Virus record (IMG/VR): IMGVR_UViG_2529292726_000015 | Coordinates: 1-39,429 of that record | From: a virus | Taxonomy: Duplodnaviria; Heunggongvirae; Uroviricota; Caudoviricetes | Length of the DNA: 39,429 bases | Reading direction: 5' to 3' (one strand) | Shown: in pieces, positions 29,429-39,429 of the stretch | Numbering within the stretch: position 1 is the stretch's first letter | How the letters are laid out: every line of letters starts with the position of its first letter | The notes under the pieces: model-generated | Seen by the model: the letters and a program-made list of their open reading frames with translations, nothing else | Told to the model about the DNA's origin: nothing | Database searches by the model: none | Made by a program: the position numbers and the translations under genes

Positions 29429-30814
29429 ATGGCTACGTGGCAACAGGGTATTAATTCTGGTGGTTTTCTGGCTGGAATTGGTGCGCAAAATGAGAATGCG
29501 CCAAAGGCAAGCGACATTAACGCAACGCTTGGTCTGATCCGCGAAAACAATGAACTGGCTCAATCAGGTGCAAATAACGTTGGTCTGACCGCGTTACGTG
29601 GTCTGGCTGGAGTTGCTGATATTTATAAGCAGGACCAGCAACAGAAAGCGATTAATGCGTTCAATAAGGTTCATGCTGATGCATGGGCTTCTGGTGATCC
29701 ATCGGGACTATTTAAGTTTGCCAAGGAAAATCCAGCGTTTGTTGCGCAGGCACAACAGGCATTTTCCGGTCTTAATGAGCAGCAACGCAACGATATGGGC
29801 GATTTAGCCATGAGGGCTAACGTCGCTCTTTCTCAGGGACCGGAAGCCTACAGTAAATTCATTACTGACAACAAGGACAGGTTAAATCGCGTGGGGGCGA
29901 ATGCTGATTGGATGATTCAGACAGGTATCCAGAATCCAGAGCAGCTATCACACATGCTGACTACTATGTCTCTCGGTGCGCTTGGACCAGAAAAGGCGTT
30001 TGCTGTTCAGGATAAGATGGTTGGTCGCCAGCAGGAGCAGCAAAGAATTAACGAAACCATTCGCAATAATGACATGACGAATGCGAGGGCTATTAGGGGG
30101 CAAAACCTTTCCTATCAGTCTGCAATGACCGGACACGGACTTGCAGCAGAAAGACTGGCACTTGATAAGCAGAAATTCGGTTTTGAAGTACAACAGGCAC
30201 AAAAGAAGGCCGAGGAACTTATTAATGCTGCGCCAAAATTATCAGTGAACATGGAAAAGGCTATAGAAAAATCAGCAGGTGATGCGGCAGCTAGTCGTAA
30301 TGCTGCCGATTCAATGACAACGCTCGCTGACACGCTGGAGAAGGAGAAGCCAACTCCTGGTTTGTTCGGTAACGCTGAAAATATGTTCTCTAAGCTTACG
30401 GGGCAAGATAACTACCTCCGAGATGTGCGGATTAGATTCAACCAACTAGCCAATGCGCAGGCAACCAAGCTTCTCCCTCCCGGCCCTGCATCAGATAAGG
30501 ATATTGAGTTTGCAAGGAAAGGCATTCCAAGCGAAACGGATAATCCAATGGTTATGGCTCGATGGTTAAGGGGTATGGCAAAAATGGAAAGTAATAACGC
30601 GAAATTCAACGAGTTTAGGTCAGAGTGGATGAGTGCAAACGGCAGCCCAGGACAATCTGATCGCAACCGAAACATCATGGGGATGGATGTTAAGAAGGGT
30701 GAATCATTGAACTCTGCGGCAAAACGTTTTCTTTCCTCAAGTTATGGCGATAGCCAACCTCAACAGCAATTGTCCGATGACGAATTAATTAGCAAATATC
30801 TCGGAGGGCAGTAA
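29429..30814 (+). CDS. 20: Ejection protein (P22 gp20-like)
   Basis: 461 aa; position and composition as P22 gp20. Confidence 0.8.
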
Positions 30815-32640
30815 TGGCTTATAGTCGTGAACAATTGATGACGGCGTTAAGGAATGCTGATGCTGCTGGTGATACTGAGGGAGCACGTCGCATTGCTCAG
30901 ATGCTGTCTTCTGGTGATCAATCCACTCAAAACCAATCGCAGCCAGAAGAACAATCTCTGGTAGGAAAAGCTACTGACTGGCTCACTGGTGGTCAAAGTG
31001 CAGGGCAAATTGCTGAACAGGCTGGTCGTGGTCTGGTAAACATACCATTTGACGTATTGCAGGGTGGTGCAAGTCTGATTAATGCAATCAGCCAGGGGCT
31101 TGGTGGCCCAAAGGTTTTGGATGATGTTTATCGTCCAGTAGACAGACCGACAGACCCCTACGCTCAAGCTGGAGAAACAATTGGCGGGTATTTAGTTCCA
31201 GGAGTTGGAACGGCAGGAAGCATGGCTATTGGATCACTGGCAGAAGCCGCAAATCAGAAAGGCGATTTCGCGCAAAATGCAGCAAGAAACGCCGGAGTTA
31301 ACCTTGCCGCTCAGGGGGTTCTTTCCGCAGCAGCAAAGGGAATAGGGCGTGGAATAACGGCTATAAAAGGTGATATTGCGCCAGAAGTGGCGAAGAAAAT
31401 TGCCACATCAGAATCGATGGGCGTGACACCAATGACATCTGATGTTATCCCGCCGAAAAATGCTTTCACTCGCGGCCTTACTCAGGATGCCGAGGGGGCT
31501 TTGCTCGGGACAGGCTCAAAGCGAGCTGAGCAATATGCAACGCGTAGTAAGCTGGTAAGTAATTATTTTGACCGTTTTGGTGAGTACAACCCTGATGATG
31601 TGGTGAAATCTCTGACCACCACGTTAAGGGGGCGGAAGGATGCCGCTGGCGCTGTTATCAATGACGTCACCAATAAAATGGGTAATGCCGCAGTTGATAC
31701 CACAAATACCATGAATGCTCTGAATACAGCGATCGCAAGACAGGAACGGCTTGGGACGTCTGCCAATCAAAGCCTGCTTACATCCTTGCGTAACCTACGT
31801 GAAGAATTAGCAAACCCTGCAACTGATTTGGATGTTACGTTTGATCTCTTGCGTCAGCACAGAACAGCATTTAGATCTAATGTTCAGGGAGATGCTATGG
31901 TCTTCCCCAACCAGGCAAAAGCAGCTACCAATATGGTAGAGAATGCAATGTCAAAAGACCTTCGTAACGCAGTTGCTAAAAACCTCGGTGCATCAGACGC
32001 AGCAAAATACCTTAAAGCAAATTCCGATTATGCAAACGTTTATAATAAGGTGCTTAATAAAAACATTGCTAACAAGCTCAACAAGGCAAGCAGTGAAGCC
32101 AGTCCTGAACTTATAAATACCGTTGTATTAAGCAGAAAACCATCTGACGTTAAACGAATCTGGAGCGCATTGGATGATAATGGGAAAGATGCTATGCGTG
32201 CAGCTTACGTCAGCAAAATAGCGGAAAAGGCCGGGGACTCTCCAGCCAAGTTCATCACTGAAGTTAATAAGCTGAAATCTCAGTCAGGCGGTGAAATTTA
32301 CAACACTATTTTTTCTGGAAAGCACATGAAAGAGCTTGATGCTCTTCATGAAGTTCTACAGCAAACAGCAAGGTCAGACACCGCAAATGTAGTAACTCAG
32401 ACGGGGCAATCGCAAGCCAACAGGATAAGGACGATTGGCGCAACTGCGACTCTTGGGGCAACACTGGCGCTTGAATCTGGTTTCGGTGCAATGATGCGCT
32501 TGTATGAATCCAAAGCCGCAAGGAATGCGCTCTTACGTCTGGCAAACACTAAAGCTGGAACGCCAGCCTATGAAAGAGCGCTGAATAACGCCGCAAATGC
32601 CATCAGACCAATACTTGCCAATGATGCAACTGATCGCTAA
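30814..32640 (+). CDS. 16: Ejection protein (P22 gp16-like)
   Basis: 608 aa; position and length as P22 gp16. Confidence 0.8.
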
Positions 32641-32661: not shown

Positions 32662-33300
32662 TTAATTGCGAATGGAATCGCGGAACTCTTTACTTGATAG
32701 AAAAGGATCTGTTCTCCTTAACTCATCATAGTTTTTATTAAACTTTCTTGCTTCACCAGGGTATCTGTTGAACAAAACATTGCAGAAAAAAGAGAGCAAT
32801 AACTCACATATGAATGCTAATATCCTGAAAAATAAAGGTATAAAAAGAAGGAAAGGTTCATTGAAGTCTCTATTCCAAACAAAATAGACAATCATCCCGA
32901 CATACCAAATTGATATCCCTATACTGATGATTGTTCCAACAGAGGTAACTACGATCCCGATTAAGTCGGACAGTCTGTTTGCCAGTAACTCATTTGAGTA
33001 TCTTGCAATCATATACCGCCAACATTTTGCAATATCATCCTGATCTGTAGAGTCTTCTGGAATGGCTAGGCTTCTACATATTGAAGCAGCTCTTTTTTTC
33101 TCAACTCTTTTTGAGAGCCATCCATTAAAGAGATACATCAACACCTGCGTTGCTATTCCTGCACCAAGTGATATCAAAGACATCCCCAAAAATCGCCACC
33201 CTGGAGATAGTGACTGGTACTGCCAAACAAAAAAAATTAAAAAACCTAATGATCCTATGACATAGGCTGATGTATCGCTATATATATCTATTTTTTTCAT
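32662..33300 (-). CDS. Polytopic inner-membrane protein; superinfection-exclusion (SieA-like) candidate by position
   Basis: 212 aa with several hydrophobic segments; strongly AT-rich; opposite strand to virion genes; sits where P22 carries sieA. Confidence 0.5.
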   Translation of the reverse strand: MKKIDIYSDTSAYVIGSLGFLIFFVWQYQSLSPGWRFLGMSLISLGAGIATQVLMYLFNGWLSKRVEKKRAASICRSLAIPEDSTDQDDIAKCWRYMIARYSNELLANRLSDLIGIVVTSVGTIISIGISIWYVGMIVYFVWNRDFNEPFLLFIPLFFRILAFICELLLSFFCNVLFNRYPGEARKFNKNYDELRRTDPFLSSKEFRDSIRN

Positions 33301-33678
33301 TGAGTAGCCACTCCTTAGTTTTGAGCAGGATACCAGATGATACTGTATTGGTGGAGTGGTGTGTGAAAACGTGTCAACGACAAACCATCCACAACTTGGA
33401 CGAATGATTTAGCAAAAAGTGCTATTTTTGGTGTTTAGTGTCATAGAAAAGTGAATAGCTCACTTTTCAACATTGCATGAAACTTGCAGGAAATGTGACA
33501 TTACCTTATAGGTAACTTCGGCGAAAATGCAGTAAATGTGAAACGTAATGGTTTAAACATGTCGCTAAAGTGGTTGTAAGTTAGCCTCCGAAGGATTGCT
33601 GATAGCTTTGTTATAGTATTAAATGACATTTGACATAGTTGGATACTTAGCTGTGGCTATCAAGATGGAGGTGTGTTC

Positions 33679-34122
33679 ATGCTTACTTGTTTTGATGTCG
33701 CCGACTACTTCCTGTCGCGGTGTGACGAGGATAGCGGTGACACAATCTCTAATTTAAAATTACAAAAGCTTGTTTACTATGCTCAGGGTTTTTCATTGGC
33801 GTTGCTTGGCGAGCCTCTTTTTCAGAATAAGATGGAAGCTTGGATGCATGGCCCTGTTGTCCCTGAGCTTTATCGCCGTTATAAACAATATGGTAATGGC
33901 GCTATCCCTTCTCCAGAGTCTTTTGATGCTGAAAAATTCAGCGAAGAACAGTTAGAGCTATTAGAAGAAGTCTGGGATGTTTTTGGGCAATTTTCTGCCT
34001 GGAAACTGAGGAACATGACACACGAAGAGTCACCATGGAGATCAAACTATATTGAGGGTGTTGGTGGTTCTGAAATTAGCTCTAAGGAGATGGCAGAGTA
34101 CTTTGCAACTCGGATTAACTAA
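33679..34122 (+). CDS. Panacea (DUF4065)-domain protein, putative antitoxin-type component
   Basis: LKLQKLVYYAQGFSLALLGEPLF...EAWMHGPVVPELYRRYKQYG matches the Panacea/DUF4065 signature as recalled; ATG at 33679 preceded by GGAGGTG. Confidence 0.65.
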   Translation: MLTCFDVADYFLSRCDEDSGDTISNLKLQKLVYYAQGFSLALLGEPLFQNKMEAWMHGPVVPELYRRYKQYGNGAIPSPESFDAEKFSEEQLELLEEVWDVFGQFSAWKLRNMTHEESPWRSNYIEGVGGSEISSKEMAEYFATRIN

Positions 34123-34126
34123 CGAG

Positions 34127-34546
34127 ATGGCAAGAAAATCTAAAAGGATTATCCCCCCTGCTGAATCTACAGGTAAGTTAAAGTTAGGGCCGCAGTCAGG
34201 GGGGAATTCAGATCAAAAGAAACCGAAATTTTCATTCTGTTACATCCAAAGCTCTCACTGCATAACGAAATGCCAAAAAGATGAGAAAGCTGGCTTAGCT
34301 GATAAATTATACAGATTAAGTCAACTAACATGGGCAGAGATTAAGCAGCAAGGTAGGCATAAGCTTGGATTTGAGAAGATTGCAAGGGGTGCGATTAAAG
34401 CAGGTATCCCCAGTCATATAACGGAAGACGTAGATCATTTCTTGGCTTTTAGATTTGATGATTTGAAAGCCATGGTTGGTTATCGTCTTGGATCGACATT
34501 TTTTGTTATATGGCTTGATAGAGAGTTCAACCTATACAAGCACTAA
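34127..34546 (+). CDS. Unrecognised 139-aa protein immediately downstream of the Panacea gene (candidate toxin/effector partner)
   Basis: ATG 5 nt after the Panacea stop; basic N-terminus (MARKSKRIIPP...); no family recognised. Confidence 0.45.
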   Translation: MARKSKRIIPPAESTGKLKLGPQSGGNSDQKKPKFSFCYIQSSHCITKCQKDEKAGLADKLYRLSQLTWAEIKQQGRHKLGFEKIARGAIKAGIPSHITEDVDHFLAFRFDDLKAMVGYRLGSTFFVIWLDREFNLYKH

Positions 34547-34598: not shown

Positions 34599-35135
34599 TC
34601 AAACAACCCACCAGTTTGCCTGATTGGATGCCAGCCTTGCAGTTTTTATGGAATTAATTATGCCATGCTCAAGAGCCTTGTTAGCATCCAAAATGGTCGA
34701 GTCTGCTATCAGGGATGCCCACCTAATATGGGTTCCGATGTCGATATTGAACGTCTCAACGAAGCGATCAAGATCGTTATCGAGGCATTTCCCGTACTCT
34801 CTCAATCTGGCATGGTCGGCGGCTGGGGTGGCAAAGCCCCATAATAGAGGATGTAACAGGAATCTTGATAATGGGTTTGCGAAACGTTCTGAGCCAGCCA
34901 GGAAAACGATATTAGCTATGGACTCAACATTGCTTATGTTGTGAGTTCTAACGGTAACAGGGAGTGACTTAAGAAAGTTATACGCAGTAAAACCAGCGGC
35001 AGTTTCCCCTCCCTGACTTGATATATGGATATTTAATTCAGTTGCGCCTTGAGATAATGCGGTGAGACAGTGGTTCTGAAGTTGCCCAACAGTGGCGGTG
35101 TTAACGGGGCATAAGAAATGAATTGTGTGCAGCAT
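34599..35135 (-). CDS. ClpP-like (S14/ClpP-crotonase fold) serine protease homolog
   Basis: IHISSQGGETAAGFTAYNFL...ISNVESIANIVFLAGSERFANPLSRFLLHPL aligns by eye with E. coli ClpP (YINSPGG...CMGQAASMGAFLL...MIHQP), including candidate Ser and His; ATGA overlap with mnt stop. Confidence 0.6.
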   Translation of the reverse strand: MLHTIHFLCPVNTATVGQLQNHCLTALSQGATELNIHISSQGGETAAGFTAYNFLKSLPVTVRTHNISNVESIANIVFLAGSERFANPLSRFLLHPLLWGFATPAADHARLREYGKCLDNDLDRFVETFNIDIGTHIRWASLIADSTILDANKALEHGIINSIKTARLASNQANWWVV

Positions 35136-35383
35136 TATTTATCATCCTTACCATACATGGTTTTCAGCGTCTCCAGCAGCGCCTCTTTGAATTTGTCAGC
35201 TTCTTGCTGAGCAAATGACTCAACTGACTTTGGCGACCTATCTTCATCAATCGCGGCTTGCAAAATCATGACGATCTCGGAGTTAACAGAGCGACCATTT
35301 TTTGATGCTCTAACAGCAAGAGCCTCGCGCAAAGATTCAGGGATTCTTACCGTAGTTGGAGAAATTGACACACCCTTTGCCAT
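35135..35383 (-). CDS. mnt: Mnt-like ribbon-helix-helix repressor
   Basis: 82 aa; N-terminal RHH region with NGRSVNSEI resembling P22 Mnt/Arc (ANGRSMNSEL); divergent from arc-ant. Confidence 0.75.
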   Translation of the reverse strand: MAKGVSISPTTVRIPESLREALAVRASKNGRSVNSEIVMILQAAIDEDRSPKSVESFAQQEADKFKEALLETLKTMYGKDDK

Positions 35384-35497
35384 ATCACACCTTTGGTATT
35401 CAATTTGATATCAAAGTGTATGCAAAAAAATTTTGACTAGATATACTCACTTTGCTATCTTTTGTATTCGAAAAGAGTTGTTTGCGTGGAGGGTAAC
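35384..35497. promoter_or_regulatory. Divergent Pmnt/Pant promoter-operator region
   Basis: TTGACT element and partial palindrome TAGATA...TATCT between divergent mnt and arc. Confidence 0.4.
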
Positions 35498-35650
35498 ATG
35501 GAGAAAGAAATAAGTAAGATTTTGGTAAGGATGCCGCAGTCGTTAAAGGATGCTATCGGTAGCAGGGCAAAGGAAGAGTGCAGGTCGTTTAACTCAGAGG
35601 TTATCAAGCGCCTGATAGACAGCCTGAAGAGAGAGGGGGTAACGGTGTGA
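35498..35650 (+). CDS. arc: Arc-like ribbon-helix-helix repressor
   Basis: MEKEISKILVRMPQSLKDAIGSRAKEECRSFNSEVIKRLIDSLKREG resembles P22 Arc; GGAGGG RBS before ATG. Confidence 0.7.
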   Translation: MEKEISKILVRMPQSLKDAIGSRAKEECRSFNSEVIKRLIDSLKREGVTV

Positions 35651-35882
35651 TTCGCTTGGATGCAGTAGTCAAAGAGATTGCGATTACCATTTTAAGACCA
35701 AATTTTGTTCATGGCGAATCATTTGGCACGAACGAAAAATTGAGAAGAGAAAGAGTATTCAGTGGCAAGCGCACGTTTTCAGAAGTGATGCTTGATGCGG
35801 CAAAGAAATCAAAACAGTGAAGCCCCAACTGCTGGAACAGTCAGGGCTTCGGTTGTCGGTAAATCCGTGGAGAAAAACCAAC

Positions 35883-36785
35883 ATGAATAGTATAGCAATT
35901 TTAGAAGCAGTGAACACCTCTTACGTGCCATTCAACGGTCAGCAAATTATCACCGCCATGGCTGCCGGAGTTGCATATGTTGCGATGAAGCCAATCGTTG
36001 AAAACCTCGGAATGAGCTGGTCAACGCAGCAAACAAAACTCATGAAGCAGATTAGCAAATTCAACTGTGTTCATATGAACATGGTTGCCGCTGATGGTAA
36101 GCTTCGTAAGCTACTCTGCCTTCCTTTGAAGAAGTTAAATGGATGGCTGTTCAGCATCAACCCTGAGAAAGTTCGTGCTGACATCCGCGATAAACTGATT
36201 CAGTACCAGGAAGAATGCTTTACTGTGCTGCATGACTACTGGACAAAGGGAGAGGCAGCAAATGCACGGAAGAAAACATCTGTTGATGACAGGACTCCGC
36301 TTCGTGATGCTGTAAATATGCTAGTCAGCAAAAAGCATCTAATGTACCCAGAAGCTTATGCAATGATTCATCAGCGTTTCAATGTGGAAAGTATTGAAGA
36401 GCTTGATGCATCTCAGATACCACAAGCAGTAGAGTACATCCACAGGGTAGTGCTTGAAGGTGAGTTCATCGGCAAACAAGAGAAGAAAACCAACGAGCTT
36501 TCTGCAAAAGAAGCAAACAGCCTTGTATGGCTATGGGATTATGCCAACCGCTCACAGGCATTATTCCGCGAACTGTATCCGGCGCTGAAACAAATTCAAT
36601 CGAACTATTCCGGCAGATGCTACGACTACGGTCATGAGTTCTCGTATGTTATCGGAATGGCGAGAGACGTTTTAATCAATCACACACGAGATGTTGATAT
36701 TAATGAGCCAGACGGACCAACGAATCTTTCCGCATGGATGAGACTTAAGAATAAAGAATTACCTCCTTCAGTACATAACTACTGA
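35883..36785 (+). CDS. ant: Antirepressor Ant
   Basis: [46 protein letters not shown]... matches P22 Ant; the ORF-track start at 35817 is an extension. Confidence 0.85.
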
Positions 36786-36802: not shown

Positions 36803-36828
36803 AACCCAGCTTCGGCTGGGTTTTTTTA
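36803..36828 (+). terminator. Rho-independent terminator after ant
   Basis: Stem ACCCAGC-TTCG-GCTGGGT followed by a T7 run. Confidence 0.7.
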
Positions 36829-36886
36829 TGCCCAAAATTCACCGTAGCCACGCTGCGGCGATTCCTTGTATCTGGAGCAAATTAAA

Positions 36887-38599
36887 ATGACAGATTCAAT
36901 AAATGCCAATGTTGTAGTGAGTATGCCTTCGCAACTCTTCACTATGGCACGTTCTTTTAAAGCCGTAGCCAATGGTAAAATTTATATCGGAAAAATTGAC
37001 ACTGATCCGGTAAATCCTGAAAACCAGATTCAGGTTTATGTGGAGAACGAAGACGGTTCTCACGTTCCTGTTTCGCAACCAATCATCATTAACGCTGCTG
37101 GTTATCCGGTATATAACGGACAGATTGCCAAGTTCGTAACTGTGCAAGGCCATTCTATGGCTGTTTATGATGCGTATGGTGCACAGCAGTTCTATTTTCC
37201 TAATGTGCTGAAGTATGACCCTGATCAGTTACGCCGAGAGCTTGCAGGAGATAATGGTTCAAATCTGGTTGGTGGTCTTCCGTTTGATTCTATGTATGGA
37301 GATCTCTCTACTACTGAAGATAACACAATGTCTATAAATGAACGTCTAAATTGGAGTAGAAAAACAGGTAAGACAGTAGAGCTTCCAGCAGGAAGGTTTA
37401 AAGTAAGCGGAGAGCTTGAACTTGGCGGTGTTAAGTTGAGAGGTAGATCTATAGGTTTTCGTAATAGTGACGGTACGGTACTTGTAGGTGTTGGGCAAGA
37501 TAGACTATTTAATCAATCTGAAAGTACATTTCCTTATTTCGCTTCCACAAAACTTGAAAGTTTACGCATTGAAAATGTTATATGCGGAATAGAATTTGGT
37601 TATCTGAATAGAGCTGAGTTTGAAGATATACATATAAAATGTACTGGTACAGGAGTGAGATTTGGGCGCGCTGGAAATGCGGGACCACAATGGAATATTA
37701 TGCGCAGATGTACAGTGGAAAGTATTGGTGGAAGCGCGATATACATGAATGGAGCAGAGTGGTGTAATAACAACACTTTTGAGCTTTGTTTCTTTGAAAG
37801 CAAGGAAAACGCAGATATACCAGCAGTGGTTATCGATTGTGCTGGAGGGTTTGGGGCAATTGATAACATTTTTATTGGGACAGAAATAGCATCTGAAGGA
37901 TATGGTGTTAGGCTGAAAAACGCTAAGGCAACTCATTTTTTTGGTGCATACTTAGAATGCTATGGGCCATCAATTTGGTTAAATGGCACATCTCTTGGAA
38001 CAAAAGTTGCCGGTGGGGTATTTGCAAGACAACGAAATAACAATGCCACTGGCATTAATTGGGCAATATATCATGAGTCTGGTAATGCATCTATTGAGAT
38101 TGATAAACCTTATGTTGTTGTGTCAAGCCCAATAAGTCAGAATGGGTGTGGCTTTATTGGATATAAAGGAGAAAGTCCGGCGTCTGGCTTGGTGGTGGAT
38201 ATAACATCAGACCCTCACACTGAAAATATCGGGGGTGTTGCATATACAAGATACAAGGATGGATTATTTAGTAAAACAACTAAAATTGTTCATGGAGATC
38301 AAATAATTCAATCAAATTCATCTCCATCACTTTCTCTTCAGCACGAAGATGGCACAAAAAAGGTTGAAATATATAGCAACTCATTAAAAGATGGGGAAGA
38401 TTTTGGTGCCACGCTTAAGGTGAATGATATATCAAGAATGCAATTCACAGCCGATGGTAAGAAAATATTACTTCCTGGACAAACTCTTGGTGTTAAAGCT
38501 GAGGAAAATACTGATACATCAGGCATTAAAACCCATAGGGTTCAACTACTTAATGAGTCAGGGGCGCATCTTGGATATATTCACGTATTCTCAAAATGA
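36887..38599 (+). CDS. 9: Tailspike protein: P22 gp9-like head-binding N-domain fused to a divergent receptor-binding/enzymatic C-domain
   Basis: N-terminal ~115 aa ([44 protein letters not shown]...VLKYDPDQ) match P22 gp9; remainder does not resemble P22; ORF-track start at 36866 is TTG. Confidence 0.85.
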
Positions 38600-39236
38600 T
38601 TCCTTGTTTTTAATATGTTTAATTTTTTATTAAGAGAACGCTCATAATTCTGTGCCACGTTAAAAAATCATTACAACGTAATCGCTTTATCGAGGCGGAC
38701 TCCAAAATAAATCGCCAACTGGGACAATATCAAATTCCAGGTCTGGATCGTCATTGTCCATTTTTCCTTCGCATCGAAGGGTTGGAACATGTGTCATTCC
38801 TTTTTGATTGCATATTACTGGAATGACACAGAATTTCTAACACACCATTTATTAATGGTTAACTTTATGAGTTATCACTATAAAAATATAAATAGGAGCC
38901 ACATGCGTTTAATATAATTATAATTATAGATGTTATCAATTCTGTTTTTATTATATAAAAAGTTAATAATTTATAATATATAGTTTACATTACTAATTAG
39001 ATAATTCTTCACTACTTGATCAAGTGTTTTTCCCAAAGCAGAATTGTTTATGACAAAACTGAGACACACAAAGCTTTGCACTGGATTGCAAGGCTTTGTG
39101 CTATCTGAGATATAGCAATGCTGGTTGCTACACCTTTTCATCAAGCCAGTCCGCCCACCACTGCATCATTTCTCTGCGCTTATCGAGATACTGAGCATGG
39201 TTGTAAATTCAGCTACCCCAGTGTGTTGACAAAAAA

Positions 39237-39271
39237 TTAGCGCAAGAAGACAAAAAATCACCTTGCGCTAA
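39237..39271 (-). promoter_or_regulatory. sib/tI-like hairpin (lambda int retroregulation element)
   Basis: TTAGCGCAAG...CTTGCGCTAA inverted repeat with T-run on the minus strand; matches lambda sequence just left of the attP P arm as recalled. Confidence 0.55.
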
Positions 39272-39275
39272 TGCT

Positions 39276-39429
39276 CTGTTACAGGTCACTAATACTATCT
39301 AAGTAGTTGATTCATAGTGACTGGATATGTTGTGTTTTGTCGCATTTTGTAGTCTATTATTTAACCGTAAATACTTATAAACATATGATTTTTAAATAAT
39401 TTATATGATTTTGTCATCCTTTAGTTCAG
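39276..39429. other. P arm of attR (lambda attP-like Int arm-type sites); core expected just beyond window end
   Basis: CTGTTACAGGTCACTAATAC...TCATAGTGACTGGATATGTTGTG closely matches the lambda attP P arm; window stops at ...TTAGTTCAG where lambda continues with the core. Confidence 0.6.

Follow-up and report, generated by a model that had tools for sequence, protein, structure and literature searches.

The strains that a phage can infect are determined by the receptor modules of its tailspikes, and such modules are used as serogroup diagnostics, as depolymerases and as modules for retargeting tailocins. The tailspike gp9 of P22 is an endorhamnosidase, and gp9 of HK620, an endo-N-acetylglucosaminidase, has the O18A1 O-antigen as its specific substrate. 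O-antigen is what Lederbergvirus and Uetakevirus tailspikes are usually expected to recognise. In Escherichia coli, receptor-binding domains have been exchanged between prophages of Lederbergvirus (HK620 anchor) and Uetakevirus (phiV10 anchor), and this exchange has been tied to O-serogroup (PMC10408124). The present analysis concerns the tailspike gene of IMG/VR record IMGVR_UViG_2529292726_000015, whose 39,429 nucleotides (nt) are referred to as the window. The gene is a complete open reading frame (ORF; 36887..38599, on the plus strand, as are all parts of it given below) of 570 amino acids (aa) and a stop codon; its product is 100% identical to database protein P0003. The overall explanation is a modular P22-like tailspike in which an HK620-type anchor is joined to a separate receptor module that would cleave polysaccharide, and this is considered likely. 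That the gene product is a functional modular tailspike is very probable.

The head-binding domain, which would anchor the protein to the virion, spans aa 1-115 (36887..37231). The Pfam family Head_binding (PF09008) matches aa 4-114 (E=8e-66, profile 3-113 of 113), and the VLKYDPDQ hinge at aa 107-114 forms the end of the anchor. Homology to HK620, Sf6, CUS-3 and P22 stops no more than a few codons from this hinge. In a search of all Protein Data Bank (PDB) sequences only aa 1-119 match, with Sf6 gp14 at 4e-64 and P22 gp9 constructs at about 1e-48; the solved Sf6 and P22 head-binding domains range from 4e-64 to 3e-45. In BLASTP comparisons 113 of the first 114 residues are identical to HK620 gp9 (~99%), and divergence sets in directly after DPDQ. 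Sf6 gives the same pattern, CUS-3 is identical through DPDQLR, and P22 gp9 reaches 74% identity over aa 1-118 (E=2e-51). The DNA of the anchor is 95.6% identical to that of HK620 over nt 1-344. The sequence-only reading of the window had claimed that the first ~115 residues closely match the P22 gp9 head-binding domain up to VLKYDPDQ; the domain and the hinge are as described, but the nearest anchor is HK620-type. By these alignments the anchor can be classed as HK620/CUS-3-type, far nearer to HK620, CUS-3 and Sf6 than to P22. It is found in 1129 of 5426 complete E. coli genomes.

Two further observations concern the anchor. The copy carried by WP4-S18-ESBL-08 departs from the window over the initial 144 nt of the anchor, and an HNH endonuclease gene (L017:5345-5833, NZ_AP022095.1) is located between ant and the tailspike gene. 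Together these may mark an exchange boundary associated with a homing endonuclease. The head-binding domain encoded at window positions 36908-37285 (aa 8-133) is also matched by PDB entry 6tgf (E=1.1e-10), a protein of 736 aa deposited as 'exopolysaccharide biosynthesis protein'. This is presumably a bacterial (non-phage) protein; if so, a bacterial protein carries a tailspike-like N-terminus.

The remainder of the protein has a different relationship to the known tailspikes. The earlier claim that it lacks similarity to the P22 endorhamnosidase domain holds: residues ~124-570 have no detectable similarity to the receptor domains of P22, HK620, Sf6 or CUS-3, and no alignment of the C-terminal part along P22 gp9 was found by BLASTP, PDB searches or hhalign. 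Past aa 118, BLASTP against P22 gp9 gives no segment better than E=0.098. Hidden sequence kinship to the P22 and HK620 receptor domains was rejected, as hhalign of a 36-sequence profile gives probabilities of 1.9% for P22 and 1.1% for HK620, and the sole piece that it aligns to these domains is a short cap-helix motif. From the missing homology it is reasonable to infer a polysaccharide specificity different from that of P22. A sub-threshold Pfam match to Glucodextran_B (E=0.029) was dismissed as chance.

Domain swapping is seen at the DNA level in the junction. In local alignments the homology to HK620, Sf6 and CUS-3 ends at 37230-37233, and homology to the P0019 tailspike of an epsilon15-like prophage (locus L010), which belongs to another prophage genus, begins at 37255. 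The ~24 nt in between (about 37231-37254) encode the linker and crossover zone, aa 116-122 (RRELAGD), and are homologous neither to the anchor donors nor to the receptor-domain donor. RRELAGD is part of a linker motif, LRxxLxxxxGxxLIGG, that precedes the module in most of its relatives on alternative anchors. The receptor-domain swapping that had been predicted is thereby confirmed, both by this junction and by the presence of the same module on several unrelated anchors.

A second boundary occurs within the module itself. The 5' tract of the module (37255..37570) encodes aa ~124-228, which include the cap helix and the first beta-helix coils. Sliding identity shows that positions 37276-~37570 are 97-100% identical at the nt level to the L010 allele, and the remaining module is 62-82% identical (~75%). 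The synonymous divergence (dS) from this allele is 0.12 in the 5' tract and ~2.0, which is saturated, downstream. The tract 37276-~37570 thus has the appearance of a recent secondary exchange with an epsilon15-like prophage. Because this second identity and dS boundary lies within the module, the gene is a mosaic of at least three segments, with the middle one recently exchanged.

The module is also mobile on a larger scale. At 64-85% identity it sits on anchors of the epsilon15/phiV10 type, the TSP1/gp66 type (PF18668), the T7 tail-fibre N-terminus (PF03906) and PF26208, and on some without a Pfam match; at least six different anchors carry it. The epsilon15-type carriers are prophages that also encode holins, a GH19 endolysin and DUF2514. 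At L020:2438-7344 (IMGVR_UViG_3300011531_000031) a 70%-identical module on a PF18668-type anchor belongs to a lambda-like siphovirus tail cluster. The lambda-J-like tail-tip gene (1032 aa) lies directly 5' of it, and a 147-aa ORF comes next on its 3' side. At that locus the module would act as side tailspike on a tail of the siphovirus type.

The main body of the module, aa ~140-460 (37304..38266), is predicted with high confidence to be a right-handed parallel beta-helix, which would bind and cleave polysaccharide. An AlphaFold2 model built with a 36-sequence alignment has a mean predicted local distance difference test (pLDDT) score of 85.7. In this model the linker is disordered, a capping helix occupies aa ~147-160 (model residues 38-51), and about thirteen beta-strand coils with pLDDT 91-98 make up aa ~140-460. 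Foldseek agrees with the beta-helix; its matches include Sf6 and P22, both with poor template modelling (TM) scores and 10-13% identity. The right-handed beta-helix proposed by the sequence-only reading, which had named structure prediction as a check, is therefore borne out by prediction and by Foldseek. The relation to the P22 receptor domain is one of fold class only. The prediction has both features of the pectate-lyase-like fold, a right-handed parallel beta-helix and an N-terminal capping helix. In alignment A3, which contains 39 distant relatives (21-29% identity) and the query, 27 of 40 sequences match PF12708 (Pect-lyase_RHGA_epim; best E=2.9e-19). Since the query itself misses PF12708, membership in the pectate-lyase-like superfamily is reached only transitively and by fold.

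The beta-helix is followed by a C-terminal beta-rich domain, aa 461-570 (38267..38596). Its strands were modelled with pLDDT 37-60 from a 13-sequence alignment and 51-83 from the 36 sequences, which is too low to name its fold. The KTHR(I/V)Q..G..LGY motif with which it ends is conserved in both alignment A1 and alignment A2. No other part of the protein diverges as far from the epsilon15-like allele, to which the domain has 70% aa identity. It probably serves for trimerisation or as an accessory binding domain.

Carboxylate pairs one coil apart are usual in beta-helix glycosidases, for example D339/E372 of HK620 and the carboxylates of P22. In the present protein Glu333 (37883..37885) is conserved in 38/40 sequences of A3, with Gln in the other 2, and Glu357 (37955..37957) in 40/40. 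The two are separated by 24 residues, about one coil, and each stands at the start of a predicted strand (residues 224 and 248 of the model). Because this arrangement is typical of beta-helix glycosidase carboxylates, the protein is proposed to be an endoglycosidase with E333/E357 as the catalytic pair. Further conserved polar residues in A3 are Q210 (40/40), Y239 (39/40), N294 (40/40), N327, Y355, N384 and H396. The best candidate for the active site is E333/E357 together with Gln210, Tyr239, Asn294 and His396. The same pattern bears on the idea that the beta-helix is a non-hydrolytic receptor binder, or has another chemistry such as that of a uronic-acid polymer lyase or a deacetylase, and is not a glycoside hydrolase. 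The two carboxylates, one coil apart as in beta-helix glycosidases, argue against all of these, and the strong conservation of polar residues throughout a family whose module changes specificity speaks for catalysis over binding alone; a binder or another chemistry is therefore considered quite unlikely.

For the gene as a whole, the following explanation is preferred. The tailspike is that of an E. coli temperate phage or prophage of the P22-like group (Lederbergvirus), and it arose by modular recombination. The N-terminal ~115 residues, of HK620 type, would dock the presumed tailspike trimer on the tail hub. The module of ~450 residues is of separate origin and consists of an alpha-helical cap, a beta-helix of ~320 residues and a C-terminal beta domain of ~110 residues. 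As in all characterised tailspikes that share this architecture, the beta-helix would bind a polysaccharide of the host surface and cleave it endolytically, and this cleavage would let the virion work down to the outer membrane. The protein is probably a glycan-cleaving enzyme. Its most likely substrate is O-antigen, at somewhat better than even chances.

Some observations weigh against this explanation. Neither phmmer beyond aa 119 nor a profile hidden Markov model (HMM) of the module (E<=10) gave a match among all PDB sequences, and no solved structure is detectable. For aa 121-570, 0 families of Pfam and NCBIfam score above threshold. The two complete-genome carriers differ in their O-antigen cluster, which is O86-type in WP4-S18-ESBL-08 and an rml and man cluster with wzx/wzy in EC6563. 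The EC6563 wzy is common to 17 genomes, none of which is serotype-named, and WP4 is not among them. Finally, the only functional label on a matching family points to an exopolysaccharide. PHROG 8280, which matches the module alone with E=2.5e-67 (profile 122-632 of 632) and the full length with E=5.6e-185, bears the label 'tail spike protein with colonic acid degradation activity'.

Because the O-antigen clusters of both carriers differ, no single serogroup can be named and a non-O-antigen receptor is possible. The module could then depolymerise a capsule or exopolysaccharide, such as colanic acid or group-4 capsule, instead of O-antigen. This would fit the label of PHROG 8280, the sole library family that matches the C-terminal module. 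CUS-3 has a K1 endosialidase on the same anchor, so the anchor tolerates capsule-specific modules. Receptor-binding proteins that occur across several serogroups may also use another receptor (PMC10408124). However, the label is annotation only, for which no experimental source was found in the literature, and the profile is unrelated to WcaM. An origin of the label in homology to WcaM was tried with the protein from the WP4 colanic acid cluster and rejected at an hhalign probability of 0.5%. The mismatch of O-types is weak evidence, coming from two carriers only, one of them a prophage remnant, and the nearest carriers with an alternative anchor are epsilon15-like, whose characterised members use O-antigen (PMC10408124). 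A capsule or exopolysaccharide depolymerase is thus judged unlikely, and an O-antigen depolymerase is preferred.

A lesion in the O-antigen region occurs in both carriers. The O86 wzy is annotated as frameshifted (L019:14323-15721, NZ_AP022095.1), and an ISAs1 lies between wzx and the wzy region in the other (L018:39179-40318, NZ_CP095856.1). These lesions may be a coincidence or may reflect selection against O-antigen in lysogens.

No O-antigen conversion genes (gtrABC, oac) were found 3' of the tailspike gene in the window (38600-39429), whereas P22, Sf6 and HK620 do have such genes after the tailspike. A further suggestion, which must be regarded as decidedly doubtful, is that the family is a small, structurally uncharacterised clade of beta-helix depolymerases (Q210-Y239-N294-E333-E357-H396) whose substrate is perhaps a glycan shared across serogroups. 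If true, a shared glycan would explain both the hosts with unrelated O-antigen clusters and the missing conversion genes nearby.

The module is rare. The full gene is present in 2 of the 5426 complete E. coli genomes (EC6563 and WP4-S18-ESBL-08), and the epsilon15-anchored allele in none of them. Among 50,697 deposited phages the sole relative of the module is a Rhizobium phage protein with 27% identity, IMG/VR contains one contig with a relative, and a scan of 185,579 GTDB species-representative genomes gave no relative. When 1.84 billion cluster representatives were searched exhaustively by HMM, 118 relatives were found at E<1e-3. The distant relatives came from this search, and a word-indexed profile search gained one truncated protein only. 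Near-identical proteins (98-100%) are represented by eighteen cluster representatives, all full length and all from Escherichia assemblies. In three long-contig carriers and the two complete genomes the prophage is located at argW beside intS and yfdC.

The EC6563 prophage is heavily deleted, with lysis genes, an Arc-family (Mnt-like) gene, the tailspike gene and int remaining. This could be taken to mean that the gene belongs to a decaying prophage remnant and has no current function. Against this, the P22-like morphogenetic module looks complete in the window and in loci L007-L009 and L017, the ORF is intact and has a ribosome-binding site, and the eighteen near-identical representatives are full length. 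The ratio of nonsynonymous to synonymous divergence (dN/dS) is ~0.05 across the helix, which indicates strong purifying selection. A gene without function is therefore highly improbable.

The limits of the gene were also examined. The ORF listing opens the frame at a TTG at 36866 and closes it at 38599, and the sequence signals indicate that the biological start is the ATG at 36887. This start is preferred because a GGAG lies 8-9 nt 5' of it (ribosome-binding site and ATG, 36873..36889), because the ant terminator hairpin comes before it, and because the product then begins with MTD, as do the HK620, P22 and Sf6 tailspikes. The terminator-like hairpin with its T-run lies 3' of ant at 36803..36832 on the plus strand (hairpin 36803-36822) according to the terminator scan and the sequence, at the same position as tANT in the HK620 and P22 annotation. 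No terminator-like hairpin was found right after the tailspike stop codon. P0003 is named 'bifunctional tail domain protein [Escherichia coli 2875150]' in the database. The DNA of 38600-39429 is AT-rich, with a GC content down to 28% around 38700-39150. Up to 39210 the DNA 3' of the tailspike gene is 97.8% conserved in the three argW-integrated carriers that were compared (L001, L007 and L017), and past 39210 the window departs from the intS-bearing loci.

The window is a P22-like (Lederbergvirus) genome that is ~95% identical to IME10 and APC_JM3.2 (late and structural genes) over 55% of the query. The gene order is a gene-16 homologue (30814-32640), a sieA-like gene, immI with mnt, arc and ant, and the tailspike gene. 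Two Arc-family genes lie at 35135-35383 (minus strand) and 35462-35650 (plus strand), and the P22-type antirepressor ant (P22_AR_N/C) lies at 35817-36785. The position of the tailspike gene fits the gp9 family when compared with the P22 and HK620 maps, as it lies 3' of immI and is the last of the late genes in a morphogenetic module of the P22 kind.

Several neighbouring genes were noted. The gene at 32662-33300 (minus strand) encodes a SieA-like superinfection exclusion protein (phrog_7745, E=1.6e-20) without a Pfam match. The gene at 33673-34122 (plus strand) encodes a SocA/Panacea antitoxin-domain protein (PF13274, E=2e-24). A 138-aa ORF that starts 8 nt after it, within 33673-34546, matches phrog_8366 and has a weak PADLOC match to NsnC (5.8e-6). 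Located between the sieA-like gene and immI, the two are candidates for a moron with a toxin-antitoxin or defence role. The gene at 34599-35135 (minus strand) encodes a ClpP-like serine protease (PF00574, E=4e-12) and lies immediately downstream of the Mnt/Arc-like ribbon-helix-helix gene at 35135-35383 with a 1-base overlap. A ClpP-like partner was not seen beside mnt in the retrieved P22 and HK620 maps.

The swap described here is real but belongs to a well-documented class, in which a conserved head-binding anchor is combined with exchangeable receptor modules. Because it is textbook knowledge that modules are exchanged at the hinge that follows the head-binding domain, little is gained conceptually. 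What is specific to this gene is a rare, uncharacterised module, its occurrence on at least six anchor types, and the recent exchange tract within the module that is shared with an epsilon15-like prophage. Identification of the glycan target would add one more receptor-module-to-glycan entry for E. coli.

In comparison with P22, the tailspike has a homologous head-binding domain, the VLKYDPDQ hinge and the right-handed beta-helix fold class, but its receptor domain is not detectably homologous (Foldseek TM ~0.25-0.28). P22 also has gtrABC downstream, whereas the prophage type of the query is without conversion genes between the tailspike gene and int. HK620 gp9, which supplies the nearest anchor, has no similarity to the query past aa ~115; it is 710 aa long compared with 570 aa here, its catalytic residues cannot be aligned, and the substrate presumably differs from that of HK620 gp9. 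The PF12708 beta-helix depolymerases (CBA120 TSP2, phi29 gp12, GVE2 ORF18) have 10-15% identity to the query, and the Q-Y-N-E-E-H constellation is specific to the small family of the query. The tail fibre of Rhizobium phage RHph_N3_8 (MN988551) has 27% identity over 94% of the module (E=4e-41) on an unrelated anchor, is uncharacterised and comes from a phage of an alphaproteobacterial host. The best BFVD structural match, A0A7S5REB8 (25% identity, E=6e-24), is possibly this same protein. The tailspikes of epsilon15/phiV10-like (Uetakevirus) E. coli prophages (P0019/P0145 cluster, 626 aa, hypothetical proteins) share the receptor module at 85% aa identity, and carry it on an N-terminal anchor (MTVSTEVNHNEYTGNGVTTSFPYTF..., ~165 aa) and in a prophage backbone that are wholly unlike those of the query.
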